Assembly: GCA_034670305.1 (NCBI GenBank)
Contig: JAXMNT010000028.1
Coordinates: 36,106-100,105 of the forward strand
Length of the DNA: 64,000 bases
Direction of reading: 5' to 3'
DNA from: Deltaproteobacteria bacterium
Lineage (GTDB): Bacteria > Myxococcota_A > Polyangia > Polyangiales > Houyiibacteriaceae
Positions 7,336-55,919 of the stretch are shown one piece after another; position 1 is the first letter of the stretch, and each line of letters opens with the position of its first letter. Position numbers and translations under genes: made by a program. A model generated the notes under the pieces. It worked only from the letters and a program-made list of their open reading frames with translations. It was not told the DNA's origin and made no database searches.

Positions 7336-7856
7336 AGCTGACCGAAGCGGAGGTCCGCCACATCGCGCAGCTCGCCCGCATCCAACTCGACGACGAAGAG
7401 ATCGCCCGCACCGCATCCGAACTCACCGCCATCCTCACCCACGTCGCCGAGCTCGACCGCTTCCAAGAAGGCGCAGCTTCGCAGTCGGATTCGGCAACGG
7501 ATTCGGCATCGGCTCCAGCATCGGCTTCAGATTCGGCATCGGATTCGGCATCGGCTTCGGCTTCGGCATCGACTTCGGATTCGGATTCGGATTCGGCATC
7601 GGCTGCGGCGTCGGCGTCGGCTTCGGCATCGGAATCGGCTTCGGATTCGGCTTCGGATTCGGCTTCGGCTTCGGATTCGGCGTCGGATTCGGCATCGGAT
7701 TCGGCTTCGGCGTCGGCTTCGGCTTCGGCTTCGGATTCGGCATCGGCATCGGCATCGGCTCCGGCTCCCCCAGCAGACCCCGCCGCCCTCACCGCCGCCG
7801 CGCCCGCGTTCGTCTCCGACGGCTTCCTCTTCCCACGCGCGGTGAAATCGAAATGA
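7332..7856 (+). CDS. gatC: Asp/Glu-tRNA amidotransferase subunit C with a large internal Ser/Ala/Asp repeat
   Basis: [11 protein letters not shown]...ILTHVAEL N-terminus and AP...[10 protein letters not shown]-terminus; lies directly before gatA with 4-bp overlaps. Confidence 0.85.
7484..7765. repeat. Degenerate hexamer repeat (TCGGAT/TCGGCA/TCGGCT/TCGGCG)n inside gatC
   Basis: Directly visible tandem hexamers. Confidence 0.95.
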
Positions 7857-10656: not shown

Positions 10657-10739
10657 TCGCGCATCTCCGGGCGCGGCGTCGCGCGCTCAGAAACAGAAGC
10701 TCGACGCGTGGTCGCGCATCTCCGCTTCGTCGGGTGCGC

Positions 10740-11894: not shown

Positions 11895-12058
11895 GGCGTC
11901 CGAAGTGTGCAGGAAGGGTACGGGGCGCGCCTGTCAGTTGCTGCGACATTCCGCACGAACCTCATGTTTCTGAGATGCTCCGGAGCGCGAACGCTGCTCA
12001 CCCGGCATTGACGTGTGGGTGAAACCCCGGCATCTTCCGTTCTAGGTAAACCTTTCCA

Positions 12059-13093: not shown

Positions 13094-13219
13094 CCTCTCC
13101 GCCGTGCGCCCCCGAACTTCCGGGGTGGTCCCCCGGAAACGACCTGGTATCGTCGAACCCGTGCACTGCGACTCCCACAGCCAGCACTGCGATTCCCGAA
13201 GCCAGCACCGCTGCATCCC

Positions 13220-14659: not shown

Positions 14660-14722
14660 CAGGTCGCTGAAAAGCGACCTGCGCCGTTGCCCTTGCCGTT
14701 GCCCTTGCCCGTGCCCCTGCCC
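14659..14722 (+). repeat. Perfect hairpin GCAGGTCGCT-GAAA-AGCGACCTGC followed by a (CCCTTG/CCGTTG)n tail
   Basis: 10-bp stem 14659-14682 immediately after the stop codon; related element at 63879. Confidence 0.75.
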
Positions 14723-14943
14723 GCGTCGTGGACGGCACCGATACCAACCTACCGTCAAGATCCGCACAGCCCCCTGTCCGCCGGCCGTCGCCCTTGATAT
14801 CGTTGGTCTTTTCGGGGGAACGGTTGTTGCTCTAGTCAACCGACGTGGGTGACGTACTGCCATTTCCGGGAGGGACGCTTGATGAGGTCCCCTCCACCCC
14901 CTATCTTGAGCGCCATCGACTCGGCTCCTCCGGTCCATCCCCC

Positions 14944-17900: not shown

Positions 17901-18633
17901 GTTCGAGCTCGCCGACGGCGGCACCCTCTTTCTCGATGAGATCGGCGACATCTCGCCGAAGACTCAGGTCGCGTTGCTTCGGGTCCTCCAGGAGCGCGAG
18001 TTCGAGCGTGTCGGCGGCACCCAAGCCATCAAGGTAGACGTCCGCATCATCTGCGCGACCCACCGCAACCTCGAGGCCATGGTCCAGGACGGTTCGTTCC
18101 GCGAGGACCTCTACTACCGCCTTCGCGGCGTCTCCATCGATGTGGCACCCCTCCGTGACCGGATCGGCGATCTGCCCGAGCTGGCGCACCATCTGCTCAC
18201 CCGAATTGCGGCCGAGCGGGGCGACGAGCCCCGACAGGCGTCCCCCAAGGTGCTGGAGATGCTCGAGCGCCATGCCTGGCCGGGCAACGTGCGGGAGCTC
18301 GAGAACGTGCTCCGCAGCGCCACGCTGTTCGCGGAAGGCGCCTGGCTAGAACCCAGTGATTTCGCGGCTTTGGGCGAGTCTTTCCTCCCGGTCGAGAAGC
18401 CGGTCGAGGTTCCCCAGAGCCAGTCGGTCGAAGACTCGATCTACGACCGCATCCGAAGCGGGGACAACTCGCTCCTCGAGATCAAGAAAGTCATCGAACG
18501 CGAGTGCATCGCACGCGCCTTGATGGATGCGGACGGGAACATTACCCGCGCCGCGGAGTTGTTGGGAATGAAGCGGCCTAGACTTTCACAATTAGTGAAG
18601 CAATACAGTCTGGGATCGTATAAGAAGGTGTGA
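14944..18633 (+). CDS. Large sigma54 activator: N-terminal P-loop ATPase, TPR repeats, AAA+ sigma54 domain, HTH
   Basis: [18 protein letters not shown]-like helical repeats, [24 protein letters not shown]; start could be 14845. Confidence 0.88.
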
Positions 18634-20049: not shown

Positions 20050-20195
20050 GCGTCGCGGCGTCGGCGTCGACGCCGAAGCCGATCCCGAAGCCGAAGCCGA
20101 AGCCGACGCCGAAGCCGAAGCCGAAGCCGACCCCGACCCCGACCCCGAAGCCGACGCCGACGCCGAAGCCGAGCCGAGCCGAGCCGATCCCGAAG
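20050..20195. repeat. Hexamer repeat island (CCGAAG/CCGACG/CCGACC)n between convergent genes
   Basis: Directly visible. Confidence 0.9.
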
Positions 20196-20209
20196 CTCGA
20201 CTCGTTCGT

Positions 20210-23049: not shown

Positions 23050-23124
23050 GTAACCCACCCTTCTCCACCGCGCAAGATCATTTTCCGGCCACCCGGCCAA
23101 AAATCCGCCAAACGGTTCTGCGGT

Positions 23125-23405
23125 TCCCTTGCCAGCGCCAAAGGCGCGATGCCCTTGCCCCTGCCCTTGCCCTTGGTGCGGTTCTGCGGTCCTGCGGTTC
23201 TGCAGCTCCCTTGCCAGCGCCAAAGGCGCGATGCCCTTGCCCCTGCCCTTGCCCTTGGTGCGGTTCGGTCAGTTCTGAGGAAGGGCACGGGTCCGTAAGG
23301 GCAAGGGCAGGGGCAAGGGCAGGGGCAAGGGTCCGTAGCCCGTAACGGCAAGCCTCGACTTCGGCTTCGCCATCGGCATCGGCATCGGCATCGGCATCGG
23401 CGTCG
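23125..23405. repeat. Composite repeat: 60-bp perfect direct repeat (23125-23184, 23207-23266) with CCCTTG units, an inverted CAAGGG tract (~23297-23331) and a (TCGGCA)n tract
   Basis: Directly visible. Confidence 0.9.
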
Positions 23406-23434: not shown

Positions 23435-25864
23435 ATCGATCTTCGCGTCCAGATCTCCCTCATCGCCGCCATCGTCTCGCTCGCGCTCGCGGGCAGCGTG
23501 CTGCTGCGTTCCGGCAAGCGGCGCGATCACTGGCCCTTCGCGCTCTTGGCGCTGAACGCGGGGCTCTGGTACCTCACCACGTTCTTCACGAAGTTGCTGC
23601 CGCACCCGTTCTTCACGCGGCTCAACCTCGCGTTCGGTGTGCTCTTGCCGCTCGCCGCGGTGCAGTTCTTCCGTGCCTTCATCGCGGACGAGAACCGGTT
23701 GATGCAGCAGATCAACCGCGCGGCGTTGTTCATCGCGGCGCTGATCATCGCGACGACCGCCACCCCCTTCTACCAACACATCGTCGTGCGCACCGCGGTG
23801 CTCGCGTACGTGATCGTGTTCCTCGTCGCGCCGCTCGCGATGCTCTTCGTGCGTTCGCGCCAAGCGACCTCGCGGTTCGAAGGCGGGCGGCTCGCGTTCC
23901 TCACCGCGGTCGGCGGCCTGGCCGCGTTCTTCACCCTGATCGAATACCTGCCCTACCTCGGCGTCGAGATCCCGCCGGTGGGCACCGTGCTGGTGCTGGT
24001 CTTCCTCTACATGCTCTACCAGTCGGTGCTGCAGTACCGGCTGATCGATCTGTACGAGCTGGCCGGGCGGCTCGGTGTCTTGACCGCGCTCTCGTTCACG
24101 CTCGCCGCCATCCTGTGGTTGCTCGTGCACTTCGGGGGTCAGCGGTACTTCCTGCATGCCGTCGTCGCGTCCCTCGCGGTGCTGGTCCTGGTCGATCCGG
24201 TGCGCTCGCGGGTGCGAGAGAAGATCGGCCAGGTGCTGTTTCGGGACCGCTTCGACCTCGAGGGCCACGTGCTCGCGCTCCGTCGCACGGTCGCGCACGT
24301 GCTCGAGAGCAACGATCTCTCCATCGTCTTGATGAACGGACTCGAACAGTCCCGCCGCGTCACGCACGCGAGCCTGTACCTTCTTCGCGAAGGCCGCCGG
24401 CACTACGATCTGGTCGGACATCTGGGTCCCGAACCGGTCCCGCGGCTCGAGATGGCGCCGGCGGGTCCACTGCTCGAACGGCTGAAGCGCGACGGATTCG
24501 TCATCCTCGAGAACGTCGAACGCGCCCTCTCGGAGCAGCGCCACATCGGCGAGGATCGCGAAGCCGAGACGCTCTACGAGATCGCCCAGACCATGCGCGC
24601 GATGCACTCCTCGGTGTGCTTGCCGGTCGAGTCGCAAGAAGGGGATCTCTACGGGATCCTCTCGGTGCGCGACGAGCGGCTGCTCGACGCGTTCAGCCCC
24701 GAAGAAGTGCAGCTCCTCGCCGGGCTCGCCGCGCAGGCCGCCATCGCGCTCGAGAACTCCCGCCAGTACCAGCAACTCAAGGAGCGCGACCGCCTCGCGG
24801 CGATGGGTGAGATGGCGGCGGGTCTCGCGCACGAGATCCGCAACCCGCTCGGCGCCATCAAAGCCAGCGCGCAGTTCCTCACCGAGACCGGGCTCAGCAC
24901 GCCCGGAGACGAGGACCCGGACGAGTTCCTCGACATCATCGTCGAGGAAGTCGACCGGTTGAATCGGGTGGTCTCGACCTTCCTGGACTACGCCAAACCG
25001 AGCAAGGGCGACCCACGGCCGACCGATGTGAACCTGGCCCTGGATCGAACGGCGCACTTCATCCGGCCGGAGTGTCAGGCGGTCGGGACCGAGTTGACCG
25101 TCGAGCTCGACCCCGAGCTGCCGCTCGTGCGCATCGACCTCGAGCAGTTTCGTCAGGTCTTGCTCAACCTCACGCAGAACGCGCTTCAAGCCATGGCCGG
25201 CGGCGGCTCCCTGCGGCTCGAGACCGCGCGTGTGATGCGGGCCGGCGAGGCGTGGGCGGAGATCGCGGTGCGCGACACCGGTCCTGGCATCACCGACGAC
25301 GTGCTCCCGAAACTCTTCGTTCCGTTCGTCACGACGAAGGAGCGCGGCACAGGTCTCGGGCTCGCGCTCTCCCAGCGCATCATCGCGGCGGCCGGGGGGC
25401 GCATCCTGGTTCGGACCCGGATTGGCGAAGGCACGACCTTCCTGGTGCGCCTGCCCGGCAGCGTGGAGCGCACGTCCCGGGTGGAGCTCCCCGAAACGGT
25501 GGAGCCCGAGGAAGCCGAAGCCGCGGACGTGGAACGCTCGGGCCGCCGAGAACCGGTGGAGACGACGCCGGACACCGCGGGCCCAGAATCACCGCACCCA
25601 GAATCACCGGACCCAGAATCACCGCACCCAGAATCACCGCACCCAGAATCACCGCACCCAGAATCACCGCACCCAGAATCACCGCACCCAGAATCACCGG
25701 ACCCAGAATCACCGCACCCAGAATCACCGCACCCAGAATCACCGGACGCCGAGGCCGAGGTTCAGAGCAGGTCGTCGACCACGTCCAGCACCGCGTCGGG
25801 CCCCAAACCATCGGTGGAGAAGGGCGCGGGAGAACGCCCAACCGACGCGGTCACGAGCCGGTAG
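23435..25864 (+). CDS. Membrane sensor histidine kinase (multi-TM, GAF, HisKA, HATPase) with PESP[H/D] repeat tail; start uncertain (23435 ATC or 23498 GTG)
   Basis: Several TM helices; FSPEEVQLLAGLAAQAAIALEN; AHEIRNPL; NLTQNA; DTGPG; GTGLGL. Confidence 0.88.
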   Translation: MDLRVQISLIAAIVSLALAGSVLLRSGKRRDHWPFALLALNAGLWYLTTFFTKLLPHPFFTRLNLAFGVLLPLAAVQFFRAFIADENRLMQQINRAALFIAALIIATTATPFYQHIVVRTAVLAYVIVFLVAPLAMLFVRSRQATSRFEGGRLAFLTAVGGLAAFFTLIEYLPYLGVEIPPVGTVLVLVFLYMLYQSVLQYRLIDLYELAGRLGVLTALSFTLAAILWLLVHFGGQRYFLHAVVASLAVLVLVDPVRSRVREKIGQVLFRDRFDLEGHVLALRRTVAHVLESNDLSIVLMNGLEQSRRVTHASLYLLREGRRHYDLVGHLGPEPVPRLEMAPAGPLLERLKRDGFVILENVERALSEQRHIGEDREAETLYEIAQTMRAMHSSVCLPVESQEGDLYGILSVRDERLLDAFSPEEVQLLAGLAAQAAIALENSRQYQQLKERDRLAAMGEMAAGLAHEIRNPLGAIKASAQFLTETGLSTPGDEDPDEFLDIIVEEVDRLNRVVSTFLDYAKPSKGDPRPTDVNLALDRTAHFIRPECQAVGTELTVELDPELPLVRIDLEQFRQVLLNLTQNALQAMAGGGSLRLETARVMRAGEAWAEIAVRDTGPGITDDVLPKLFVPFVTTKERGTGLGLALSQRIIAAAGGRILVRTRIGEGTTFLVRLPGSVERTSRVELPETVEPEEAEAADVERSGRREPVETTPDTAGPESPHPESPDPESPHPESPHPESPHPESPHPESPHPESPDPESPHPESPHPESPDAEAEVQSRSSTTSSTASGPKPSVEKGAGERPTDAVTSR
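25583..25747 (+). repeat. 15-bp tandem repeat x11 (CCAGAATCACCG[C/G]AC)
   Basis: Directly visible; encodes PESPH/PESPD. Confidence 0.95.
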
Positions 25865-41059: not shown

Positions 41060-41140
41060 GCGCCGATCGTGCCGCGAGGTTGCAGGTGTCGCAATCGGAA
41101 TGGTCGGCATCCAGCGGTCGAAGGTTGATCGGGCGCTCGA

Positions 41141-41255
41141 GCCGACGCCGACGCCGAAGCCGACGCCGACGCCGACGCCGACGCCGAAGCCGAAGCCGAA
41201 GCCGAAGCAGGAGCCGATGCCGACGCCGAAGCCGACGCCGAAGCCGACGCCGAAC
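41141..41255. repeat. Hexamer repeat island (CCGACG/CCGAAG)n between divergent genes
   Basis: Directly visible. Confidence 0.9.
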
Positions 41256-44098: not shown

Positions 44099-45262
44099 AT
44101 GAGTGAAGTCGTCATCGTCGACGCCGTCCGTTCCGCGGTCGGCCGCGCCCACAAGGGCACCCTTCGTTACCGTCGTCCCGACGAGCTCGCCGGCGAGGTC
44201 ATCCGTGGCCTCATGGCGCGCAACCCCGGCGTCAAGGCCGAGACCATCGAGGACTTGATCCTCGGCTGCGCCATGCCCGAGGGCGAACAGGGTCTGAACG
44301 TCGCGCGCATCGCGGGTCTGCTCGGCGGTCTGTCGGAAGACTCTGCCGCCATGACCATCAACCGGTTCTGCTCGAGTGGCCTGCAGGCGATCGCGATCGC
44401 CGCGAGTCACATCTCGGCGGGCTGGATGGACATCGCCGTCGCGGGTGGAGTCGAGTCCATGTCGATGGTGCCCATGACCGGCAACAAGCCGAGCATGTCG
44501 CCGGAGATCTTGGCGACGCACCCGACCGCGCTCACGCCCATGGGCACCACCGCGGAGAACGTCGCGAACAAGTTCGGCATCTCTCGGGAAGCCCAGGACG
44601 AGTTCGCCTTCCAGTCGCAGCAGAAGGCGCAAGCCGCGCTCGAAAGCGGCGCGTTCAAGGACGAGATCGTGCCCGTGCACGGCATCTTCTACGAAGGCAG
44701 CGAACGCATCCTGAAGGAGTTCACCGTCGATGAGCTGCCGCGCGCCGGCACCACCGTCGAAGGCCTCGCCAAACTGCGCCCGGCGTTCAACGCCAAGGGT
44801 TCGGTCACGGCCGGCAACGCCTCCCCGCTCAGCGACGGCGCCGCCGCATCCATCGTGATGAGCAAAGCGAAGGCCGACGAACTCGGCCTCGAAGCACTCG
44901 CCACGTTCAAACACTTCACAACCGCAGGCGTCGACCCGTCCATCATGGGCATCGGTCCGATTCCGGCCGTGAAGAAGCTCCTCGCCCGCACCGGCCTCAG
45001 CATCAACGACATCGATCTGTTCGAGCTGAACGAAGCGTTCGCGAGTCAGTCGATTTACGTGCGCGACACCCTCGAGATCCCGTCGGAGAAGCTGAACGTG
45101 TACGGCGGCGCCATCGCCCTCGGCCACCCCCTCGGCTGCACCGGCGCCAAGCTGACCGCGACCGCGCTGCACGAGCTCAAACGCCGCGGCGGCAAACGCG
45201 CCATCGTGACGATGTGCATCGGTGGCGGCATGGGCGCCGCCGGCCTCTTCGAGCGCAACTGA
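44099..45262 (+). CDS. fadA: Acetyl-CoA C-acyltransferase (thiolase)
   Basis: [29 protein letters not shown]. Confidence 0.95.
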
Positions 45263-45374: not shown

Positions 45375-45628
45375 GGCTTCGGATCGGATTCGGATTCGGA
45401 TTCGGATTCGGATTCGGATTCCGGCTTCGGGGTCGGCTTCGGCGTCGGCTTCGGCGTCGGCTTCGGCTTCGGGCGTCGGCGTCGGCTTCGGGGGTCGGGT
45501 TCGAACCAGAGCCAGAGCCAGAATCAGAATCAGAACCGGAACCAGAATCAACGACAGCCTCAGCCTCAGCCTCAGCCTCAGCCTCAGCCTCAGCCTCAGC
45601 CTCAGCCTCAGCCACAGCCACAGCCACA
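45375..45628. repeat. Hexamer island: (TCGGAT/TCGGCT)n, then (CAGAGC/CAGAAT), then (CAGCCT)n tract T1
   Basis: Directly visible. Confidence 0.92.
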
Positions 45629-45811
45629 CGCGGATGTCGCCATTGAACTCCGCGACCTTGCCGAGAGGATCGAAGCCGACCGCGCGTACAGCGGAACGAA
45701 CGGCGCACAGCTGTCACTGATCGGCGGGCTCGCCGTAACGAGCCGGCGGATGCAAGAAGATCTAGCATAGACGTCCGTCAACATCCCTTGGCAAGTGGAG
45801 GAGGTTCGGCC

Positions 45812-47068
45812 TCAGAGCGGCACCCTGGGTTGGCCGGGCGTGACCGGGGGCGGTTCGATACACTCTCCACCAAGGCCACAGCACAGCGACAAACACTGCA
45901 GGTGGCTTAGCTCGGGCGAGACGGCTGTGCGGCTCGGAGGCGGATGCATGCCGCATCTGGATCCCAGGGCCAGAGCTGGTTGGCAAACGCGATCCAGGCA
46001 GTACAAACCCGGACGACAGCTGCTCAGAACGCAGGAAGAGCCGAGACTACCGTCACCCCACGCCACACACCTGTTCCCAACGCAGTCGTAGCGTAGGGAA
46101 ATATCGCACATTCTCAGATCCGGATATCTACAATCGTCGCCAGCCTCAAGCGGAGTCCGATCCACATCCGGAACGGCAACGCACCGACCCCTATCGCACA
46201 TCTTGCCGTCCGGACATCGATGCAGTTCCGCTCTTGTATCCCCGTCAACTTCCCAACCACAGCGGTCAGGAGTTGGCTCAGCAGCCAGTGATCCCACACG
46301 ACAGCGCCCAATCGAATCAATTCTTGGGAAGAATGACATGCCCGTACAAGCGGTGAAGGTGTCGGGGTCGTTGTCGCCCGCGCATTGTGTCGAGTGTGTG
46401 CACGCTAGACCCGGAGGAAGTCGGGGTCGACACTGCGGTGGTCCGCATTCGCGGGTCGACGGGCCGGCGCAATAGTTGCCGGTCGGACACTGGAGACGAG
46501 ATACACACTCGTCGTTGGATCCGACGCGAGGCACGCGGAACACCTGCCAGCATGAATCCGGCTCGCGGTTTAGCCAATGGGCCAGTTGCGGCCCAAGCCC
46601 CACCGCCGGGCACTCACCCCGAAGCTGTTCAAGGCAGGCCTCCAGTTCAGTTGGACTCCCGCGTACCGGCATCACCCCCACAAACAACTCAATTTCATAC
46701 GGGAGAACCCGCCGAAACCGCCGGATGTCTATCCCGGATCGGCACTCCTCCATGGTCTCCCACGTACGAGCACCGCACAGCATCAAGCCCTCACAGGCCG
46801 CACTGTCCATGGCATCGACGTATTCCGCGACTTCCGCAGCGGAGAGACCCACGTGATCGGATGACGGAGCCGCCGGAGGTCCGGGCGATACCGGCACAGG
46901 GTCTACCATGTGGGTCGCGTGACAGGCGTAGAGCGACAGCGTAAGTAGCGAGACACTACCGCGGCGGATACGGCGGCGGCGAAAAGTGGTTGAAGTCGAC
47001 CAGCCCGCGCATCCGCCGACCCGTTGTCGACTCGTCTGCTGGGTCGGCCTGCCACCTCCACCACTCAT
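45812..47068 (-). CDS. Cassette 1 gene C: Cys-rich lipoprotein (start uncertain: ATG 47068 or ATC 46969)
   Basis: Lipobox LYAC; clear homology to 48759-49916 (GLGPQLA, CVSRLQCPxGxYCAG, CTHSTQC, CDxSLR, WGDGSLGSSC). Confidence 0.75.
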   Translation of the reverse strand: MSGGGGRPTQQTSRQRVGGCAGWSTSTTFRRRRIRRGSVSLLTLSLYACHATHMVDPVPVSPGPPAAPSSDHVGLSAAEVAEYVDAMDSAACEGLMLCGARTWETMEECRSGIDIRRFRRVLPYEIELFVGVMPVRGSPTELEACLEQLRGECPAVGLGPQLAHWLNREPDSCWQVFRVPRVGSNDECVSRLQCPTGNYCAGPSTRECGPPQCRPRLPPGLACTHSTQCAGDNDPDTFTACTGMSFFPRIDSIGRCRVGSLAAEPTPDRCGWEVDGDTRAELHRCPDGKMCDRGRCVAVPDVDRTPLEAGDDCRYPDLRMCDISLRYDCVGNRCVAWGDGSLGSSCVLSSCRPGLYCLDRVCQPALALGSRCGMHPPPSRTAVSPELSHLQCLSLCCGLGGECIEPPPVTPGQPRVPL

Positions 47069-47800
47069 AGCTGATGCACCGTACGGGGAAAAAGGTGAAG
47101 ATGAATGGCGCCGCAGAATCCCGGGGGGCGATAAGCATCGTGCTGTACGCCATGTTGACGATGTCGCGATTGGATTGTCTCCACAACCACTGCCCCATCT
47201 CATACACCATAGGTTCGAACCACCCGCTCCTGCCCTTTCGCGGAGGCAGGCCGCACCTGTCCGCAGCGCAGCCAGGATATACGTCTGGGAAGTCCTCAAG
47301 CTCGTCACCAAGGTGATTAAGGAACGAATCCATGCTGCGGCTGGCCTCCGGATATAGAGCGAGTACCCTCTCGGCATAGTACACCATGCAATGAGCCTGG
47401 ATGTCGTTCACGCGATGGTTGCAGACAGTGGCGGTTGGCATATCCCCAGTGCACCATATGTGGCCGCAATGCTCATGTCGAAGGGCCGGAGTACGTAGTC
47501 AATGCATGGACCGGCAAGGGGCGAGAAGACGTCAAACCGAGTGTCGAACCCCACTGGAACAGCGCCATCAGGCAAGCCGCCTTGGCATCCACACGACCCC
47601 GGCGGTTTTGGGTGGGGTAAGAACGGTTGCCTACGTCTTGGCGGGGTCCGCACGGAAGGGTGCGTCATGTGGCTAACCGGCGCGGCTCTTACCGGGGCCG
47701 CCACGGGCTTCCCGCAACCACAACCCGAAGGGCCCGCAGACAGAGCACTCTCCACGAGGCGAGTTGAGGGGTAGTAGACGACCGGCGGGCTCTTCTGCAT
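46956..47800 (-). pseudogene. Cassette 1 gene B, split by a frameshift near 47440-47500 (ORFs 47408-47800 and 46956-47441)
   Basis: The N-terminal part (KSPPVVYYPSTRL, GCGC, GPC) and the C-terminal part (CxxxxxDIxxxCxxxxA) together align with 49953-50729. Confidence 0.6.
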
Positions 47801-47801
47801 C

Positions 47802-48215
47802 TTAGAACTGCCTCAGATGCACGTCCATGCTGAACGTCCCGTCCAAGGCCCCCACGGTAGTGGTGCGTGAAATCGTGATGCCAATGGCGATCATCGCACC
47901 CATCGTCGTTGGATCGAGCGAGGCGACCATCAGTGTGGGCGCCACGCTTTGATCGTCGAACTTCACCGTCTTCACCGGAGCGGAAATGAAGTCGAGCTGA
48001 GGATCCTCCGCGCTCGGCGCCTCGGAGTACACGGCAAACTCGAACTCCCCACCGGTACTGATATCGAGCTCGTGTGCTCGCACCAATAGACCCACGTGTG
48101 CGAAGTCGGAGATGTTCACCCGCCTCATGATCGAGTAGCCAACGCTCTCGTTGTCCTTCAGCGCAGTGCCGTAGTCGCTGTACACAGTCCGTTCAAGCAC
48201 CTTCAAAATTGGCAT
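47802..48215 (-). CDS. Cassette 1 gene A: 137-aa beta-rich hypothetical protein
   Basis: RBS AAAGGTGG; near-identical copy at 50731-51144. Confidence 0.8.
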   Translation of the reverse strand: MPILKVLERTVYSDYGTALKDNESVGYSIMRRVNISDFAHVGLLVRAHELDISTGGEFEFAVYSEAPSAEDPQLDFISAPVKTVKFDDQSVAPTLMVASLDPTTMGAMIAIGITISRTTTVGALDGTFSMDVHLRQF

Positions 48216-48425
48216 ACCCCCACCTTTCGTCCTCATGATTGATCATTGAGTTGACGATGTATACCGCATCATTGGAACCAAACTGACCCACGGCATACGC
48301 GTGGTGGACGTGCCTCGGCGAACTGGTTGACCGCTGCAATGCGACCCTCTGCCAGCAGTGTGCTGAGCGCCTTCTTCGTCATGTTCTTCTCTCCACGAGT
48401 CGACGAATCAACGCCCATCAGGTTG

Positions 48426-48581
48426 GCCACAGCCACACAGCCACAGCGCCGCCACAGCCACAGCGCCGCCACAGCCACAGCCGCATCCTCAGCCTCACGC
48501 CCAGCCTCAGCCTCAGCCTCAGCCTCAGCCTCAGCCTCAGCCTCAGCCTCAGCCGCAGCCTCAGCCTCAGCCGCAGCCACA
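48426..48581. repeat. (CAGCCA/CAGCCT)n tract T2 between the cassettes
   Basis: Directly visible. Confidence 0.92.
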
Positions 48582-48758
48582 CGCGGATGTCGCCATTGAA
48601 CTCCGCGACCTTGCCGAGAGGATCGAAGCCGACCGCGCGTACAGCGGAACGAACGGCGCACAGCTGTCACTGATCGGCGGGCTCGCCGTAACGAGCCGGC
48701 GGATGCAAGAAGATCTAGGATAGACGTCCGTCAACATCCCTTGGCAAGTGGAGGAGGT

Positions 48759-49916
48759 CTAGAGCGGGGGCGGCGCCCTGGGTTGGCCGGGGATGAGTGG
48801 CGGCGGTTCGATACACGTCTCATCCTGCCCGCAGCACTGGGACAAGCACTGCCTGTGACTTAGGCGAGGGGAAAGGTAGCGACCGCCCCCACCACACGCA
48901 GAACCTAGTGGGAGGGCTGGGCGACACTCCCGATCTGAACAATACAAGCCGGGGAGACACTCGTTTAGGCAAGAGGACCCAAGGCTTCCGTCGCCCCAGG
49001 GAACGCAGAGATTGTCAACGCAGTCGAAACGGAGCGAAAGGTCGCATATGGTCAGGTCTGGATAGCTGCATGGGTCGCCGAGTTCCCGGTCCCTGATGAG
49101 CTCACCGTCGGGAACCTCGACGCATCCTTCGCGACCACATGTCTCCCCGTTTGGGCAGCGACGGAACTCGGCGCGAAAATCCCCAAGTGCTTCCCATCCG
49201 CAAGTCCCAGACGGCGCATCTGTGGAGACGGAGCCAATGTGGCAGACACCGATCGAGCCAAGCCGGGGGTTGTACGGCACGCCAATACAAACGGCGAATG
49301 TGTTTGGATCGCCGCCCCCCTCGCACTGGGTTGAGTGAGTGCATGGCTGGCCCGGGGAAAGCCGAGGTCGGCACACCGGCGGTCCGCACTCACGAGTCGG
49401 TGCGCCAGCACAATAGTCTCCTCGGGGGCATTGGAGGCGAGACACGCATGGGTCGCCCGAAGCCACCGGAGGAACGTGGAACACCTCCCAGCATGAATCG
49501 TTTGGTGCCCGGTTTGGCCAGTCCGCGAGTTGAGGGCCCAGTCCCTCGGCCGGACACCTTTCTCGGAGCTGCTCCAGACAGCGCTCCAGCACCGAACGAC
49601 TGCCGAGCACCCCCCCTTCCAACAGACCAACATCGTATGGAAGCACTCCTCGGAAACGCCGCAGCGCCTCGCCGACACGACACTCTTCCACAGAGTCCCA
49701 AGGGCTCGCCCTGCACAGTAGTAGGCCCTCGCACACCGCTGCGTCCATCATGTCGAGGTATTCGGACACGTCGTCTGCCGACAAGAGTGAGTGAGAAGAC
49801 GGCGGCATCGGCGAGAGAGGGTCGGGGTCAACTCGATGAGCAGAGGTGCAACTCAGCGCAACAAAAACCCCGACAGCCAGGTGACGAGGCAGAACCCTGT
49901 GACACATGGATCGCAC
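48759..49916 (-). CDS. Cassette 2 gene C: Cys-rich lipoprotein
   Basis: Signal peptide with lipobox ALSC; paralog of the gene at 45812. Confidence 0.8.
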   Translation of the reverse strand: MRSMCHRVLPRHLAVGVFVALSCTSAHRVDPDPLSPMPPSSHSLLSADDVSEYLDMMDAAVCEGLLLCRASPWDSVEECRVGEALRRFRGVLPYDVGLLEGGVLGSRSVLERCLEQLRERCPAEGLGPQLADWPNRAPNDSCWEVFHVPPVASGDPCVSRLQCPRGDYCAGAPTRECGPPVCRPRLSPGQPCTHSTQCEGGGDPNTFAVCIGVPYNPRLGSIGVCHIGSVSTDAPSGTCGWEALGDFRAEFRRCPNGETCGREGCVEVPDGELIRDRELGDPCSYPDLTICDLSLRFDCVDNLCVPWGDGSLGSSCLNECLPGLYCSDRECRPALPLGSACGGGGRYLSPRLSHRQCLSQCCGQDETCIEPPPLIPGQPRAPPPL

Positions 49917-49952
49917 AATAGTTCAGTTCTAGTCCTGCCGCGAACCGAGCTT

Positions 49953-50729
49953 CTACGGCCATGGAAGGGAGGGCGTGATAGTCGACGCGGGGTGAGGAGC
50001 CCACCGATTGCATGCCCAACAGTCGAGTGGCTGCTCGTACCGTGGCATCATCCCGCTATCAAGCGGGAAACTCTCCAACGCGTCCATGTTGTCCTTGAGG
50101 TTGACGAAGTTGAGGCGCTGGCCAAGTATCCACCGCGAGGGCGCCAGGTGGTCCGCCACCTTGCGCGCCATGCAGCCGTTGAGCGAGAAGGGCCGGGGGA
50201 TATTGCATGCGAAATTCCCCCCGCCACATTCCGGGGTCGGGTCGCGTGGTCCAAAATCTCGACGACTCCAGAGAAAGGCCACTTGGGCGACGAATTCCCT
50301 GATGAACTGCTCTCTACTGAGGGTCACTGGTTGTGAGTAGATCATATCGGCGAGCCTCCACGCACAGGCACCGTCAATGTCTCCTGGACTCTCCCTACAT
50401 AAATAGTTTTTCATTGGGTTTCCCGAGGGCACGGGGACAATCGTCATTAGCTGAGTAAACTGCCGGTGGCCCAGACAAGGTCCCAGTACGTGGCTCGGTG
50501 TGACTATGGGAGGGAGGTTTGTGCGTGCCCTCGCGCCGCGTAGATCAACGACAGGGGTGCGCTGTTCGGGAAACCGGTGGCCACAGTCACACCGCCCGCT
50601 ACAGCCGCCGTGGCAGCCACAGTTGCAGCCATCCCTTGGCTCTCCCAGCCGGGTCAGGCCTTGCATGCTCTCGCTGGGTTCGAGCCGGGTGGAGGGGTAC
50701 ACCACCACGCTTGGGCTCTTTAGTGCCAT
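49953..50729 (-). CDS. Cassette 2 gene B: Cys-rich hypothetical protein (candidate effector)
   Basis: KSPSVVVYPSTRL, GCNCGCHGGCSGRCDC; starts 1 nt after the gene A stop. Confidence 0.72.
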   Translation of the reverse strand: MALKSPSVVVYPSTRLEPSESMQGLTRLGEPRDGCNCGCHGGCSGRCDCGHRFPEQRTPVVDLRGARARTNLPPIVTPSHVLGPCLGHRQFTQLMTIVPVPSGNPMKNYLCRESPGDIDGACAWRLADMIYSQPVTLSREQFIREFVAQVAFLWSRRDFGPRDPTPECGGGNFACNIPRPFSLNGCMARKVADHLAPSRWILGQRLNFVNLKDNMDALESFPLDSGMMPRYEQPLDCWACNRWAPHPASTITPSLPWP

Positions 50730-50730
50730 C

Positions 50731-51144
50731 TCAGAATGTCCTCAGATGCACGTCCATGCTGAACGTCCCGTCCAAGGCCCCCACGGTAGTGGTGCGTGAA
50801 ATCGTTATGCCAATGGCGATCATCGCACCCATCGTCGTTGGATCGAGCGAGGCGACCATCAGTGTGGGCGCCACGCTTTGATCGTCGAACTTCACCGTCT
50901 TCACCGGAGCGGAAATGAAGTCGAGCTGAGGATCCTCCGCGCTCGGCGCCTCGGAGTACACGGCAAACTCGAACTCCCCACCGGTACTGATATCGAGCTC
51001 GTGTGCTCGCACCAATAGACCCACGTGTGCGAAGTCGGAGATGTTCACCCGCCTTATGATCGAGTAGCCAACGCTCTCGTTGTCCTTCAGCGCAGTGCCG
51101 TAGTCGTTGTACACAGTCCGTTCAAGCACCTTCAAAATTGGCAT
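50731..51144 (-). CDS. Cassette 2 gene A: 137-aa beta-rich hypothetical protein
   Basis: Near-identical to 47802-48215. Confidence 0.8.
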   Translation of the reverse strand: MPILKVLERTVYNDYGTALKDNESVGYSIIRRVNISDFAHVGLLVRAHELDISTGGEFEFAVYSEAPSAEDPQLDFISAPVKTVKFDDQSVAPTLMVASLDPTTMGAMIAIGITISRTTTVGALDGTFSMDVHLRTF

Positions 51145-51354
51145 ATCCCACCTTTCGTCGTCATGATTGATCATTGAGTTGACGATGTATACCGCATCAT
51201 TGGAACCAAACTGACCCATGGTATACGCGTGGTGGACGTCCCTCGGCGAAGTGGTTGACCGCTGCAATGCGACCCTCTTCCAGCAGTGTGCTGAGCGCCT
51301 TCTTCGTCATGTTCTTCTCTCCACGAGTCGACGAATCAACGCCGATCAGGTTGG

Positions 51355-51577
51355 CCACAGCCACACAGCCACAGCGGCCGCCACAGCCACAGCGCCGCCA
51401 CAGCCACAGCGCCGCCAGCCACAGCGCCGCCACAGCCTCAGCCTCAGCCTCAGCCTCAGCCTCAGCCTCAGCCTCAGCCTCAGCCTCAGCCTCAGCCACA
51501 GCCTCAGCCTCAGCCTCAGCCTCAGCCTCAGCCTCAGCCTCAGCCTCAGCCTCAGCCTCAGCCTCAGCCTCAGCCTC
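51355..51577. repeat. (CAGCCA/CAGCCT)n tract T3
   Basis: Directly visible. Confidence 0.95.
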
Positions 51578-51619
51578 TGCGCCGCGTCACGCTCGCGCCG
51601 CTCGCGCGTCTACCCCTCC

Positions 51620-52153
51620 ATGTCCCGCATGCAACAGGAGCCGCTTCCGCGCGTCGCTCGCGACGCTTGGACGCACCACCCGAACTTCCCCCATCAGACG
51701 TTGTTGTTGGGCTCCCACGCGAACTTCCGGTCGATCAATGCGCAGCTCGTCGAAGTCGCCCGTGGGCAGTCGCAGTCGACCGACGCGATCGAGCGCTACT
51801 ACCGGCGCTGGATCTCCGCGATGCGAAGTCACGAAGCCTACGAAGAGCACAAGCTCTACCCCTACCTCGCGCGTCGCTACGGCACCTCGTTCGAAGACGC
51901 GGAGGCGGGCCACCACGCGCTGCATGAGAAACACGCGGCGGTTCTGAGCGCGGCGCAACATGCGCGTGCCTCCGACGACCGGTCCGAACTCGTGGAGGCG
52001 CTGCGGGCACACGAGCAAGTACTCAGCGCACATCTCGACCTCGAAGAAGAACGCGTGATCCCGCTCCTGCTCGAGCTGACGCGCGAAGAGTTCGACCGCT
52101 TCACGCACTCGTCGATCTCGACGCTGCTGCGCGAGATGGACAGCAGAGCCTAG
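51620..52153 (+). CDS. Hemerythrin-like (HHE) domain protein
   Basis: H...HEAYEEHKLYP...H...HLDLEEERVIP. Confidence 0.8.
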   Translation: MSRMQQEPLPRVARDAWTHHPNFPHQTLLLGSHANFRSINAQLVEVARGQSQSTDAIERYYRRWISAMRSHEAYEEHKLYPYLARRYGTSFEDAEAGHHALHEKHAAVLSAAQHARASDDRSELVEALRAHEQVLSAHLDLEEERVIPLLLELTREEFDRFTHSSISTLLREMDSRA

Positions 52154-52154
52154 C

Positions 52155-52228
52155 CGCCAAAGCCGAAGCCGAAGCCGAGGGCTGTCGCTGTCGCCGTCGC
52201 TGTCGCTGTCGCTGTCGCTTCCGCTGCC
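52155..52228. repeat. Short hexamer island (GCCGAA)n / (CTGTCG)n between convergent genes
   Basis: Directly visible. Confidence 0.8.
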
Positions 52229-52233
52229 ACAGG

Positions 52234-55164
52234 CTACGGGCAGTACCGAACCATCCGCAGATTGTCCTCGTCGTTCTCTCGGTGAAGGATCGTCACGTAG
52301 CCGCCCGGACCCGCGGCGATCGCGGGCTCGTCGCCGGAGCTGCGGTAGCTGTCGAGGGTCTGTTCCATCGATGCGACGCCGCCCTCGACCCGCACGTAGC
52401 GCAGGTCGGCGATCGGCACGGTGACGGTCCCGAACGGCACCCGGGTGTCGTCGCGCGCGACCACGTGGGCCACGCCTGCGCTGTCCACGGCGACGGCGGT
52501 GCCCTCGCCGATGGCGCGCGACGCGAACAGCGTCATCGGCGACCAGAGGCCGGGGCCGTCTTGGCGCGCGTAGAGCACCGAGTCCAAGCTGTTGTCCCAC
52601 GCGACTGCGTGCAGCACTCCGTCGCTGCCGCGCGCGAGATCCGCGAAGCGTCCGACGTCGCCGCTCGTGGCGATCGCGCTCTCCGAGAACACGCCGCCCG
52701 GCGTGCCCGCGCTGTGCCGCAGATCCCGCGCGCCCGTGTCGTGATGCACGATGTCGACCGTTCCATCGGGTGCGGGTTGAAGGCTGGCGTAGTCGCCCAC
52801 CGTGCCCGCCTCCATCACGGTCTCGATCGTCCACGCGCCCGCCGAACCGACCGCGAGCTTCAAGTCGTCCACGGTCTCGTCGTGGTAGGCGATCGCGATG
52901 CGGCCATCGGCCAGCACCCCGATGGACGTGTAGAGGCCGGTGTCGTTCATCGCGTCGACCGTCTCCGCCACCCAGGCGCCGCTCGCGGGCGTGGCGTAGA
53001 TCAGGTCACGCACGCTGTCCTCGTAGTAGGCCGCGTGCGGAATGCCCGCGGCGTCCACCACGATGGAACCGAACTGCCCTCGGCGCGGCACGTCGATGGT
53101 TGCGGTGCGCCAGACCCCGACCGTGGGCATCGTGGCGTACGCGAGGTTGTCTGCCCCATGACGGTCGAATGCGACGTGCACGTCGCCCCGCGGCCCGATC
53201 GCGATGGACGGATCTTGCCCGGTGTTGTCGTCCGCATCGAGCGGTTCGATCAGCCACCCCGTCGCACCGGACGCGCGGTACGCGTAGCGCAGGTCCTGGT
53301 AGGTGGCGTCGCGGTACACGATGTGAAGGCCACCCTCCCCGTCCATCGCGATGTCCGGCTCGCGGCCCAGGTCCACGTCGGTCTCCACCAACTCACCGCT
53401 CCAAGTGCCGCCTCGGCGGACGGCGTAGCGGAGGTCGTTCCCGCTCGCGTCGCGGTGCGCCACATGCGCCGTCCCGTCGGCCTCCACCACCATCGAGACG
53501 CCGAGTCCGTAGTTGCGACCGGTCTCCGCGAACTCGATCCCCCAAGCCCCGGCGGCTGGTCGAAACGCGTACTTGAGATCGTTGCTGGTCTCGTCGCGGT
53601 AGACGATGTGAAGTCCTCCGGTTCCGTCCAGCCCGATCGACGTGCCGACCCCGACGTTGTTGTCGGTGTCGACCACCTCGTCGCTCCAGGTGCCGTCGGG
53701 TGTGCGGGTCGCGTGCAGCAGCTGCGCGGCGCCGTTGTCGTAGCAACTCACGTGCACGGTCCCGTCCGTTTCGAGCACGAGGTCCGCGTAGCGGCCCGTG
53801 TTGCCCGCTTCGATCGCGACCTCGCGGGTCCACGCGCCGCCGTCCGGCCGGTAGGCGTAGCCGAGGTTCTGACCGGTCTCGATCCGGTACGCGACGTGGA
53901 CTCCGCCGTCCGCATCGAGTGCGATCGCCGGCGACCGGCCGGTATCCCCGGCCGTGTCGACCGCCAGCACCGACCATGAGGTCTCACCAGGCGCGCGGTA
54001 CGCATGGCGCAGGTCGCGGTTGGTCGCGTCGAAGTGCACGACATGCACGCCCCCATCGGGCGCCACCGCGACCGCCGGCTCGTTGCCCGCATCGCCCGTC
54101 GCCTCGATGTTCTCGGTCCGCCAGAAGCCGTACGGCGGGTGGTAGCCGTAGCGCGGCTCACGCGTCGCCGCGTGGTACCAGAGCGCGTGAAGCCCGCCCT
54201 CCGCATCGGCGACGATGGCCGGCTGGTGACCGGTGTCGCGAAGCGTCGCGACGGGGCTGCGCAGGAACGCCCCGGGCAGACATCCGCAGTCCTCGTCGGT
54301 GGTGCCGTCGCAATCGGAGTCGTTGCCGTCGCACCCGTCGGGACGATCCCCGCCTGCGCACCCGCAGACGCCCGCCGCACACGCGCCGCCCGGGCAGGCC
54401 GTGCCGTCCATCGCAGGCGTCTGAACACACATGTCGTCGAGGCAGCTGCCCACGGTACACGGGTTGCCGTCGTCGCAGTCCCCGCAGCCGGGCGCGTCGG
54501 TGCCGGCCGCGTCGCGGGCAGCGTCGAGTCCTGCGTCGCGGGGCCCACCGTCGAAGGACATCGTCGGCACGCACCCTGCCGCCGGGTCACACACCTCGTC
54601 TGCGCCGCAGCGGGAATCGTCCGGCACCGCCAGACACACCGCTTCGAGGCAGCGCGCAACCGCGCACGCGCTCGCGGCGCACTCGCTGTCCATTCGGCAT
54701 TCGGCGTCTGGGCACGCCGCTGGATTCGCTTCGGAACATTCGCTCGGCACACAGCGGCCACCGAAGCAGGTGTCTGCCGCCGCGTCTTCACACCGCACGC
54801 CGCCGCAGTTCCGGGTCACCACGACCGTCAGGGCGAAGTCGCTGTCGGACAGACTGAGCGACACCCGTCGCTCTGCCAGCACCCCGCCGGCGGCGTCGAA
54901 GAGCGTGACCTCCACTTCGTGCGCACCAGCCGAGAGACCGCCGAGCTCAGCGATCCGAATGCCCGACACCGCGTCGTCGGTGGCCGTGACGGCTTGCTCA
55001 GCCCGTCGCAAGATCCCGCTCGCCACTTCGACCAGTTCGGTCCGGACCTCCGCCAGCTCACGCCCAGGAACGAAGTCCGTCCGCAGGTCGACCACGAGTT
55101 CGGGACCAGACGCCCCACCGCAGCCGAGCAAGAAGACGACCAACCCAGACCAGAAGCGAACCAT
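52234..55164 (-). CDS. Large surface lipoprotein: Cys-rich region followed by beta-propeller-like repeats
   Basis: Lipobox LLGC; CDDGNPCT; CDGNDSDCDG; about 14 repeats of G-x3-I-A-x-D-x2-G-x2-H-x2-Y...DL-x-YA...W. Confidence 0.82.
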   Translation of the reverse strand: MVRFWSGLVVFLLGCGGASGPELVVDLRTDFVPGRELAEVRTELVEVASGILRRAEQAVTATDDAVSGIRIAELGGLSAGAHEVEVTLFDAAGGVLAERRVSLSLSDSDFALTVVVTRNCGGVRCEDAAADTCFGGRCVPSECSEANPAACPDAECRMDSECAASACAVARCLEAVCLAVPDDSRCGADEVCDPAAGCVPTMSFDGGPRDAGLDAARDAAGTDAPGCGDCDDGNPCTVGSCLDDMCVQTPAMDGTACPGGACAAGVCGCAGGDRPDGCDGNDSDCDGTTDEDCGCLPGAFLRSPVATLRDTGHQPAIVADAEGGLHALWYHAATREPRYGYHPPYGFWRTENIEATGDAGNEPAVAVAPDGGVHVVHFDATNRDLRHAYRAPGETSWSVLAVDTAGDTGRSPAIALDADGGVHVAYRIETGQNLGYAYRPDGGAWTREVAIEAGNTGRYADLVLETDGTVHVSCYDNGAAQLLHATRTPDGTWSDEVVDTDNNVGVGTSIGLDGTGGLHIVYRDETSNDLKYAFRPAAGAWGIEFAETGRNYGLGVSMVVEADGTAHVAHRDASGNDLRYAVRRGGTWSGELVETDVDLGREPDIAMDGEGGLHIVYRDATYQDLRYAYRASGATGWLIEPLDADDNTGQDPSIAIGPRGDVHVAFDRHGADNLAYATMPTVGVWRTATIDVPRRGQFGSIVVDAAGIPHAAYYEDSVRDLIYATPASGAWVAETVDAMNDTGLYTSIGVLADGRIAIAYHDETVDDLKLAVGSAGAWTIETVMEAGTVGDYASLQPAPDGTVDIVHHDTGARDLRHSAGTPGGVFSESAIATSGDVGRFADLARGSDGVLHAVAWDNSLDSVLYARQDGPGLWSPMTLFASRAIGEGTAVAVDSAGVAHVVARDDTRVPFGTVTVPIADLRYVRVEGGVASMEQTLDSYRSSGDEPAIAAGPGGYVTILHRENDEDNLRMVRYCP

Positions 55165-55211
55165 GCGCGATTCTACCGCATGCCCGCGAACGCCGCGCTT
55201 CGGCGTTCTGA

Positions 55212-55919
55212 TCAGCGCGCCGCGACCGCAGGGGGCGGAAGCGGCGGAAGACCGATCGTGAACCGCACCGTGCGAGGCATGGCGAGCGGCTCTTCGGTGA
55301 CCGGAGCGTTGAGCAAGGGTGCGATCGCACAGTCGGCGAGTGGCGTCCCGGCCGGAAGCGCGCGCTGGATCCAACCCGACGAGACACGGCCATCGACGCC
55401 AACGGTGAGTTCGACCGACAGGATCGCTTGGCCATCGCGATCACGGTTCGCCTGACAACGTTTCATCCTCTCCTCGAGCCCCCGCACCCCCGCTTCGAAG
55501 ACGGGATCGATGGCGCCCACCACCGGACCGAGCCGGCACGTGTCCGTGGAGTCTTGCGCACAGAACGTGAAGCGGTGGTCCCGTTCGATCGCCACGGCCG
55601 GGGCTGGATCAAAGTAGAGGCTGGCGATGCGGCGATGCACGCACGCCGCCACCTCCGCGCTGCCGGAGGTGTTGCGGTGCACCTCGGTGCCATGCACCCG
55701 GCCGTCGGTGCCGATGGCGAACCGGACGTCGAGAAGACCCGAGCCGTCGCCCAGACACGATCGCACCCGCCCCAGATGACCCTCGAGCTGTGCTTCCACG
55801 AGCGCCGGCGATCCGGTCGATGGGAGCCGGGGCGCGTCGTCCGGACGGTAGGATCGCTGGGCGCATCCCATCGTGATCACGAGCCCAACACCAAACAAAC
55901 CAAACGTTTTCAGAGACAT
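55212..55919 (-). CDS. Lipoprotein with two AgmX/PglI (TonB-C-like) domains
   Basis: Lipobox MGC; VRSC...VRFAIGTDGRV...AACV and MKRC...LTVGVDGRV...ADC. Confidence 0.7.
   Translation of the reverse strand: MSLKTFGLFGVGLVITMGCAQRSYRPDDAPRLPSTGSPALVEAQLEGHLGRVRSCLGDGSGLLDVRFAIGTDGRVHGTEVHRNTSGSAEVAACVHRRIASLYFDPAPAVAIERDHRFTFCAQDSTDTCRLGPVVGAIDPVFEAGVRGLEERMKRCQANRDRDGQAILSVELTVGVDGRVSSGWIQRALPAGTPLADCAIAPLLNAPVTEEPLAMPRTVRFTIGLPPLPPPAVAAR

Follow-up and report, generated by a model that had tools for sequence, protein, structure and literature searches.

The window analysed here, a 64,000-nucleotide (nt) stretch of contig JAXMNT010000028.1 from a Deltaproteobacteria bacterium (assembly GCA_034670305.1; 7.9 Mb in 105 contigs, 96% complete), contains a tandem array of two cassettes in which nearly identical flanks and a nearly identical first gene enclose strongly diverged cores. 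Both units lie on the minus strand and measure ~2.95 kb each (45555-48507 and 48508-51460); in the direction of transcription, each runs from a constant upstream region (R) through the genes A, B and C to a constant 3' flank (L) and a hexamer tract (T). From its sequence and layout we tentatively read the array as a polymorphic effector/immunity-like system with a new constant module, an assignment to which we give slightly less than an even chance. The array comprises the following features, with lengths in amino acids (aa), open reading frames abbreviated as ORF and the G+C content at third codon positions as GC3:

45555-45625, no strand: T1, (CAGCCT)n hexamer tract, 11.8 copies with 98% matches (TRF)
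45626-45811, minus: L1, non-coding constant flank on the 3' side of C1 that includes a GC-rich hairpin, 99% identical to L2
45812-46969, minus: C1, cysteine-rich lipoprotein with lipobox LSLYAC, 58% identical to C2; its true start lies somewhat upstream and is uncertain
46956-47441, minus: additional 161-aa ORF of cassette 1 only, taken from the ORF list, GC3 0.74
47408-47800, minus: B1, variable protein of 130 aa with the constant N-terminus KSPPVVYYPSTRL, GCGC at residues 26-29 and 6 Cys
47802-48215, minus: A1, constant 137-aa protein, predicted jellyroll, with 0 Cys and no signal peptide, 98% identical to A2
48216-48427, minus: R1, constant region upstream of A1, 97% identical to R2
48428-48578, no strand: T2, hexamer tract between the cassettes (TRF)
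48579-48758, minus: L2, constant 3' flank of cassette 2
48759-49916, minus: C2, cysteine-rich lipoprotein of 385 aa with lipobox FVALSC and 32 Cys in the mature part
49953-50729, minus: B2, variable protein of 258 aa with the same N-terminal motif as B1, a GCNCGC...C patch at residues 34-49 and 14 Cys
50731-51144, minus: A2, second copy of the constant predicted jellyroll
51145-51363, minus: R2, constant region upstream of A2
51364-51577, no strand: T3, hexamer and 17-mer tract at the end of the array (TRF)

An earlier sequence-only reading had described L and A+R as near-identical between the units, with three substitutions in A before its last codons, and both observations were reproduced. 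Direct repeats detected by a repeat finder covered L (45555-45805 vs 48508-48758, 98%), A (47798-48097 vs 50727-51026, 98%) and R (48219-48448 vs 51147-51376, 97%), and in a sliding comparison of the units with 60-nt windows L and A+R were identical at 58-60 of 60 positions. A1 and A2 share 134 of 137 residues; their codons differ at positions 13, 30, 113 and 136 (n = 4), the last one encoding Q vs T. The synonymous divergence (dS) of A is 0.02, and the flanks differ by ~2%. In the same sliding comparison C mostly gave 31-45 of 60 identical positions, with lower values at its ends, and B gave 17-28 of 60 with gaps, corresponding to a nucleotide identity of 55-70% for C and to unalignable sequences for B. 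The C lipoproteins are homologous but diverged, as proposed: they are 58% identical, keep 33 of 34 Cys columns, and show a proportion of synonymous differences (pS) of 0.76, which is saturated, at a nonsynonymous divergence (dN) of 0.30. The B/C cores are old, with C under purifying selection; the flanks and A are recent copies or have been kept alike by conversion. Saturated divergence in C next to ~2% divergence in the flanks fits the suggested swapping or accumulation of units by homologous recombination, and not local hypermutation.

A comparison of whole B1 with whole B2 gave z 6.8, with 0 of 500 shuffled sequences scoring as well, a result owed to the N-terminus, where 14 of 26 residues are identical. 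When B1 from residue 31 onwards was compared with B2 from residue 51 onwards, the score fell below the shuffled mean (z -0.9; 436 of 500 shuffles as good). Of the shared B motifs listed in the sequence-only reading, the N-terminal one is therefore retained, and GPC, CxxxxxDIxxxCxxxxA and PxC occur at chance level. Apart from these N-terminal tags, the B proteins are mutually unrelated. In both units a gap of 1 nt separates the stop codon of A from the start of B, again as first described, and C starts 30-36 nt after B.

The island is richer in A/T than its surroundings (GC 0.55-0.65 vs 0.65-0.73), and no integrase family was found among 20 neighbouring ORFs scanned, both in line with the earlier description. 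GC3 was 0.73-0.76 for A, 0.65-0.69 for B and 0.61-0.64 for C (0.61-0.76 over the whole island), compared with 0.78-0.93 in 35 flanking ORFs that had been picked for high GC3. A Shine-Dalgarno-like AGGTGGGGG precedes the ATG of A1 in R1. No tRNA was found, an Rfam scan of the island gave no match, the fold of L was not significant (z -1.44), and promoter and terminator scans stayed at background level. L and R are unique to the two cassettes within their own genome. The hexamer tracts do bound the units, as had been stated, but further ones precede T1 at 45375-45550 and similar tracts occur at five other sites of the window (7485, 20068, 23361, 41141 and 52181), so that they are not specific to the island. 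Long hexanucleotide microsatellites with up to 47 copies of TCGGCT fill many intergenic gaps as a genome-wide feature; in the window, such sites lie at 7485-7766, 20068-20201, 23361-23405, 41140-41254, 45375-45550 and 52181-52226.

The mosaic recurs in other genomes. The loci compared comprised 23 fetched regions and 10 from a search with a narrower alignment, six of the latter duplicating earlier ones; ORFs were called by a simple script instead of a gene finder, and triads were counted after curation by hand. A triad was defined as an A gene, a B-position protein that starts -4 to +39 nt behind A and has CxC within the first 120 residues, and a protein with a lipobox. That B/C-like genes follow A homologues, as would be expected from the sequence-only reading, was observed as a full triad in 10 cassettes from 6 genomes among 31 array ends: the window (2 cassettes), L008, L009 (2), L043, L052, L060 (2) and L083. 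Three more loci (L041, L050 and L059/L079) carry a partial triad, in which a B protein without the patch is followed by a small cysteine-rich protein or a lipoprotein.

In genome G057, two complete cassettes share A and ~300 nt upstream of it (85-90 of 90 positions, 94-100%), identity collapses at the end of A, and the B proteins have only a short N-terminal motif and the GCGC patch in common; three cassettes of this genome contain lipoproteins of the window's C family. Loci L083 and L052 resemble each other in A (83% identity) and in the first 31 residues of B (87%), after which the B proteins (457 vs 197 aa) are unrelated, so that a constant A combined with variable B and C, as postulated for the window, is seen there as well. 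By comparison, the whole triad is orthologous between L052 and L060 (A 51%, B 51% and C 47% identity) and was passed on as a unit. L060 additionally holds two tandem A-B-lipoprotein cassettes with B and C unrelated between them. The suggestion that B and C are co-evolving pairs is partly supported by these data: the co-inheritance in L052 and L060 argues for it, and the 58% identity of C1 and C2 next to unrelated B proteins, together with C-family members that stand without A or B, argues against strictly cognate pairs. A and B are separated by gaps of 1 or -4 nt and are apparently translationally coupled, and the constant B tag co-varies with the type of A. In the other genomes, too, GC3 is lower in the variable genes than in A or in genes of the host, and transposase or integrase-core genes are located near four of the loci (L008, L054, L056 and L059).

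Several individual loci show additional features. The G057 array is situated at the 3' end of lnt, encoding apolipoprotein N-acyltransferase (L009 5001-6566, 8907-9212 and 11918-13000), and partial copies of the lnt 3' end with different lengths follow the cassettes, as if insertions had duplicated part of the target. The orthologous B proteins of L052 (6727-7320, minus) and L060 (8520-9071, plus) contain 16 Cys each, with the C-terminal pattern C-x6-C-x7-CC-x7-C-x-C-x5-C; we take this cysteine spacing to recall cystine-knot peptides. Proteins with RCC1 repeats (beta-propeller) and a lipobox-like N-terminal Cys are encoded beside A cassettes (L060 11654-12844 and L043 4508-6106), one of them directly after a trypsin-like B, a position that would suit a protease inhibitor.

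The tandem in the window is probably genuine. Depth was obtained from four DNA runs of one study that contain the stretch. Core 1 (45776-47840) had depths of 11.1, 13.6, 10.3 and 31.9 and core 2 (48729-50769) of 11.0, 13.1, 10.6 and 28.7, compared with 12.9, 16.9, 14.3 and 33.3 for the contig of the left flank and 13.1, 14.8, 12.8 and 30.8 for that of the right flank. The cores thus reached 0.72-0.96 of the flank depth in all four runs, and the contigs of the shared A and L segments ~1.1-2 times that depth. Two strains with one cassette each, joined during assembly, would have given cores at about half the flank depth, and the values near flank depth therefore favour a true tandem. G057 and a 6.98-Mb contig of genome G266 also contain tandem cassettes of this kind. 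An artefact of this sort might be expected in a 105-contig assembly with shared segments that invite mis-joins, and it gains from the contigs of the four runs, which break at every repeat with none bridging the units; since the runs may include the source sample, the depth support is also not independent. With the depths on the other side, we consider an artefact highly improbable.

Of the proposed two three-gene cassettes, both units were confirmed, but cassette 1 does not consist cleanly of three genes. Its 161-aa ORF shares 34 nt with the end of B1 and also overlaps the likely start of C1, so that either B1 may be split or cassette 1 may contain four genes. The ORF may be a gene in its own right, or B1 may have been frameshifted and the ORF be its downstream half. 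It has no significant similarity to B2 by alignment statistics, and no indel was found at this site in the contigs of the four runs. B1 plus the 161-aa ORF was also considered as a split homologue of B2, for which the alignment statistics gave no support. The gene caller of a protein database lists a 521-aa C1 (P0095) in place of the 161-aa ORF.

Protein A is a member of no named family: it matched none in Pfam, NCBIfam, PADLOC or PHROGs. Scanning 1.84 billion representatives in full with HMMER retrieved 93 proteins at E <= 0.001, mostly of 135-145 aa with a few doubled ones; one of the 93, an FG-GAP protein, is probably spurious. A k-mer protein search with A returned the window's own proteins only, and tblastn of A gave no match in 50,697 phage records or in plasmid records. 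The AlphaFold model, built on an alignment of 72 of the 93 family proteins, predicted an eight-stranded jellyroll at a predicted local distance difference test (pLDDT) value of 95.8. Its structural neighbours are generic beta-sandwiches, among them the VP2 projection domain of infectious bursal disease virus (IBDV; Z 10.9, root-mean-square deviation 3.0, 122 residues), XepA (Z 8.8), YomS (Z 8.5), the cement protein of phage BPP-1 (Z 8.8 over 109 residues), the capsid protein of phage 7-7-1 (Z 8.0), Endo-D and meprin domains, and carbohydrate-binding modules, all with Z values in a range that the tool calls common for any beta-sandwich. Foldseek matched Ena fibres at template modelling (TM) scores of 0.39-0.46; A1 and A2 contain 0 Cys and hence no N-terminal connector cysteines of the Ena type. 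In a protein-language Atlas search, the nearest proteins were hypothetical ones of ~143-152 aa from tailed phages and Myxococcota, and the nearest named family was Bbp16 (PF21190), assigned to 21% of the members of its cluster; PF21190 was absent from the Pfam matches of A and of 72 family members. The A profile found a single match among PDB sequences, a 143-aa 'Structural protein' at E 0.62. On these grounds we regard A as a small jellyroll that may descend from phage structural proteins.

The A profile matched 35 of 401 sampled genomes of the class (the window's own genome included), with 26 of 71 genomes positive in a Nannocystaceae-like family (f34) and 0 of 25 in the window's own family. 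A phylum-wide sample gave 16 positive genomes out of 401, nine of which belong to a family of another class (29 genomes sampled). At least 10 matches were found in single genomes, often in runs, and runs of 2-5 copies are frequent. A module consisting of A, a 73-aa protein and a second A recurs as a constant unit before different low-GC3 genes in Nannocystaceae-type genomes, and the conserved protein of 73-76 aa between the two A genes (MLLY.NNTRFKA...) was located at L054 7920-8141, L056 7935-8165 and L059 8079-8300. L050 contains a fusion of an A-like domain with an 817-aa protein, and a lipoprotein with 33 Cys comes next. L053 carries five A-family domains in a row (7428-10713) and directly downstream (10759-18001) a TcA-like protein of >2,400 residues with ABC_toxin_N, VRP1 and neuraminidase-like domains.

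Pfam analysis of 41 proteins encoded downstream of A identified phospholipase D (PLD)-like proteins at three loci, trypsin-like peptidases at two, and a subtilase, a beta-helix protein, a glycosyltransferase-methyltransferase and a TcA-like protein at one each; 29 of the 41 had no Pfam family. PLD-like and trypsin-like proteins at the B position of relatives are enzyme types common among toxins, which is suggestive only. In the same analysis of 110 other neighbours of A loci, neither secretion nor defence genes recurred.

Cys counts are even in 9 of 10 B proteins of the CxC type and, after the lipobox Cys, in the mature C proteins, which we regard as signs of a disulfide-bonded, extracytoplasmic life of both. 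The maximal hydropathy over 19 residues was 0.54-1.49 in the CxC-type B proteins (1.06 for B1 and 0.64 for B2). A double-glycine or lipobox-type leader in B was considered and rejected from the sequences, as no hydrophobic core precedes the CxC patch. A complex prediction from the A alignment and B1 scored 0.00, compared with a mark of 0.32, at an uncertain fold of the partner, and thus speaks neither for nor against a contact of A with B.

In an alignment of five C proteins (C1, C2 and three from G057), the lipobox Cys and 30 further Cys are invariant, and C2 matched a G057 C protein weakly over the whole length (E 2.5e-7). C has no Pfam family above the cut-off; weak matches to Dickkopf/EB-like cysteine modules lay below it. 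A model of C2 from the five-row alignment was unusable (pLDDT 53), and a k-mer protein search with C2 returned the window's own proteins only. With a C profile, full-length relatives were detected in 12 of 401 genomes, and C appears to represent a wider lipoprotein family that was recruited into the cassettes. PADLOC 2.0 assigned none of the five proteins scanned (A1, B1, C1, B2 and C2) to a family at E <= 0.1.

In the mechanism that we infer, the constant head of each cassette would consist of the promoter region, the cytoplasmic jellyroll A and an N-terminal stretch of ~15-30 residues of B; the variable body would consist of the remaining, cysteine-rich part of B with its N-terminal CxC patch and the envelope lipoprotein C. 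B would be an effector that is exported or acts in the envelope, the constant tag at its N-terminus would work with A as an adaptor, carrier or assembly partner, and C would protect or act as a partner in the periplasm. New B-C bodies would be gained or exchanged by homologous recombination, with A+R as the arm on one side and L on the other, and cassettes would accumulate in tandem as an outcome. A bolder extension takes the A family as the signature of a new class of proteins, derived from phages, that traffic or package polymorphic effectors in Myxococcota: a jellyroll that, alone or in hetero-paralogue sets, would recognise a short N-terminal tag and pass disulfide-rich or enzymatic effectors (knottin-like, PLD-like, peptidases, Tc-like) on for export or release by a route with no relation to known secretion systems, with the lipoproteins providing periplasmic self-protection. 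We consider this extension rather unlikely.

The anatomy follows the logic of polymorphic toxin loci, in which a constant head gives way sharply to a variable body with a small gene behind it, alternatives stand in tandem and the cargo is low in GC. A constant N-terminal part with a sharp boundary to a hypervariable remainder is present in A together with the first ~15-31 residues of B. A toxin domain in the variable region was found neither in B1 nor in B2, and no N-terminal domain for type V, type VI or type VII secretion systems, Sec or the like was detected. C occupies the place of an immunity gene directly downstream, its neutralising role being putative. Orphan or alternative toxin-immunity modules have been described for contact-dependent inhibition (CDI) and Rhs polymorphic toxins (PMC3150448, PMC4436062, PMC12226406). 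The cassettes share with these the constant N-terminal part that ends in a sharp break, the hypervariable remainder, the small gene directly after it, the tandem alternative modules, the lower GC of the variable parts and a presumed exchange by homologous recombination. The variable tips of Rhs and CDI proteins are likewise lower in GC. Unlike in CDI/Rhs loci, the constant part is mostly a separate 137-aa predicted jellyroll plus a tag of 15-31 residues, with no large CdiA/Rhs body; no known secretion domain or apparatus was found, the downstream protein is a large cysteine-rich lipoprotein, and each cassette keeps a full copy of the constant gene. Because of these large differences, our confidence in an effector-immunity function stays tentative.

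Among myxobacterial systems, SitA/SitI are lipoprotein toxins delivered by outer membrane exchange (PMC5562445, PMC8546572). The cassettes likewise are myxobacterial, polymorphic, present in multiple copies on mobile or island DNA, and involve lipoproteins. In Sit systems the lipoprotein itself is reportedly the toxin, its toxin domain lies at the C-terminus, and a gene for cytoplasmic immunity comes next; the lipoprotein here is the last gene (C), contains ~32 Cys and has no toxin domain, and no toxin lipoprotein of the SitBAI kind was recognised. We know of no jellyroll partner of Sit. The MuF polymorphic toxins of temperate phages (PMC5576092) similarly join a phage structural-protein-like module with variable toxin parts. 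A differs in that it is not a MuF domain, in that no prophage surrounds the locus and in that phage records gave no match. With Bbp16 of BPP-1 (PDB 3j4u chain H) and XepA and YomS of Bacillus prophages, A shares the length of ~135-145 aa and the eight-stranded jellyroll, but it has no sequence-level match to them, no capsid or lysis gene context and Z values not above the beta-sandwich background; neither membership in PF21190 nor a phage head-gene context was found, and the likeness to Bbp16 is one of fold. The layout was not found in the titles and abstract openings retrieved on myxobacterial polymorphic toxins and lipoprotein immunity, which included the SitA literature, and those retrieved on jelly-roll proteins in Myxococcota contained nothing relevant.

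A number of findings weigh against an effector-immunity function. B1 and B2 belong to no family in Pfam, NCBIfam, PADLOC or PHROGs and have neither a recognisable toxin domain nor relatives; B2 matched only itself among 5.8 billion clustered proteins and had no usable Atlas match; B has neither a signal peptide nor a hydrophobic segment; and B1 may be broken or split. Neither type VI secretion system (T6SS) sheath proteins (PF05943) nor phage-type sheath proteins (PF04984) were detected in the genome, which is 96% complete, and no secretion genes recur among the 110 neighbours. Of the 31 array ends, 21 do not contain a full triad, and at least two B-position ORF calls (L051 and L057) are spurious because real genes occupy the other strand. 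C-family proteins occur at 10 loci outside genomes G000 and G057 with no A match even at E <= 1, so that C need not be an immunity protein specific for B, and C1 and C2 are 58% identical under purifying selection though B1 and B2 are unrelated. An alternative is a non-toxic variable module of the envelope or surface, in which B and C would form a polymorphic complex for adhesion, kin or prey recognition or matrix binding, A serves as assembly factor and the variation serves recognition. C as a large disulfide-rich lipoprotein with a conserved scaffold (31 invariant Cys in five sequences), its weak Dickkopf/EB-like matches, its separate existence elsewhere and the missing toxin domain in B1 and B2 are all in keeping with such a module, which is nevertheless unlikely: relatives have PLD-like, peptidase and TcA-like proteins at the B position, B has no export signal, and selection on C1/C2 is purifying overall and not diversifying.

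The phage-like traits of A open two further explanations. A might be a self-assembling phage-derived jellyroll that forms a shell, a decoration lattice or a fibre with variable cargo, the B tag being a loading or attachment peptide. The best fold matches (IBDV VP2, BPP-1 cement, 7-7-1 capsid and Ena fibres), the tailed-phage proteins in the nearest Atlas clusters with Bbp16 as nearest named family, the runs of 2-5 A paralogues, the doubled A proteins and the co-variation of the B tag with A type would all be accounted for. We nonetheless judge it quite unlikely, since the Z values are common for any beta-sandwich, the A profile has no significant match among solved structures, Bbp16 is not matched in Pfam, tblastn found nothing in the phage records, no phage context surrounds the locus, and A has no Cys for cross-links of the Ena type. 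Alternatively, the same resemblance to phage structural proteins could make A a sensor or decoy in anti-phage defence, coupled to interchangeable effectors; PLD-like and protease effectors, low-GC cargo and nearby insertion sequence (IS) elements are indeed reminiscent of defence islands. This explanation is decidedly improbable, as no PADLOC model matched A, B or C (no known anti-phage system was recognised for the five proteins scanned), no defence genes recur among the 110 neighbours in Pfam, and the apparently disulfide-bonded B and C and the lipoprotein nature of C point to the envelope and not to a cytoplasmic abortive-infection effector.

The array is adjoined by a thiolase gene on the low-coordinate side (44099-45262) and by a gene for a hemerythrin-domain protein on the high-coordinate side (51587-52153). 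In a synteny comparison aimed at an insertion, neither a thiolase nor a BNR gene lay within 1.5 kb of the orthologues of the latter in 11 relatives from the family. Beside the island, at 52234-55374 on the minus strand, lies a gene with a host-like GC3 of 0.85, whose 1,046-aa product is rich in cysteine in its N-terminal part and carries BNR-like repeats. Two other repeats were noted in the window, a 15-nt unit in 10.9 copies with 97% matches (25582-25744, inside the ORF 23498-25864) and an 82-nt unit in 1.9 copies (23113-23266).

Whatever the function of the cassettes, the clean mosaic of recent flanks and ancient cores illustrates well how homologous recombination exchanges cassettes in nature. 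An A family that carries no annotation heads swappable cassettes in several myxobacterial lineages, with up to at least 10 copies per genome. Myxobacteria are social predators, and to our knowledge their established tools for kin discrimination and killing (SitA, T6SS, Tad-like and type III secretion system-like machines) leave some antagonism unexplained. If B and C are effector-immunity pairs, the cassettes would extend the polymorphic toxins by a constant module of a new kind and probably also by a new route of delivery, and they would supply many unstudied cysteine-rich effectors.

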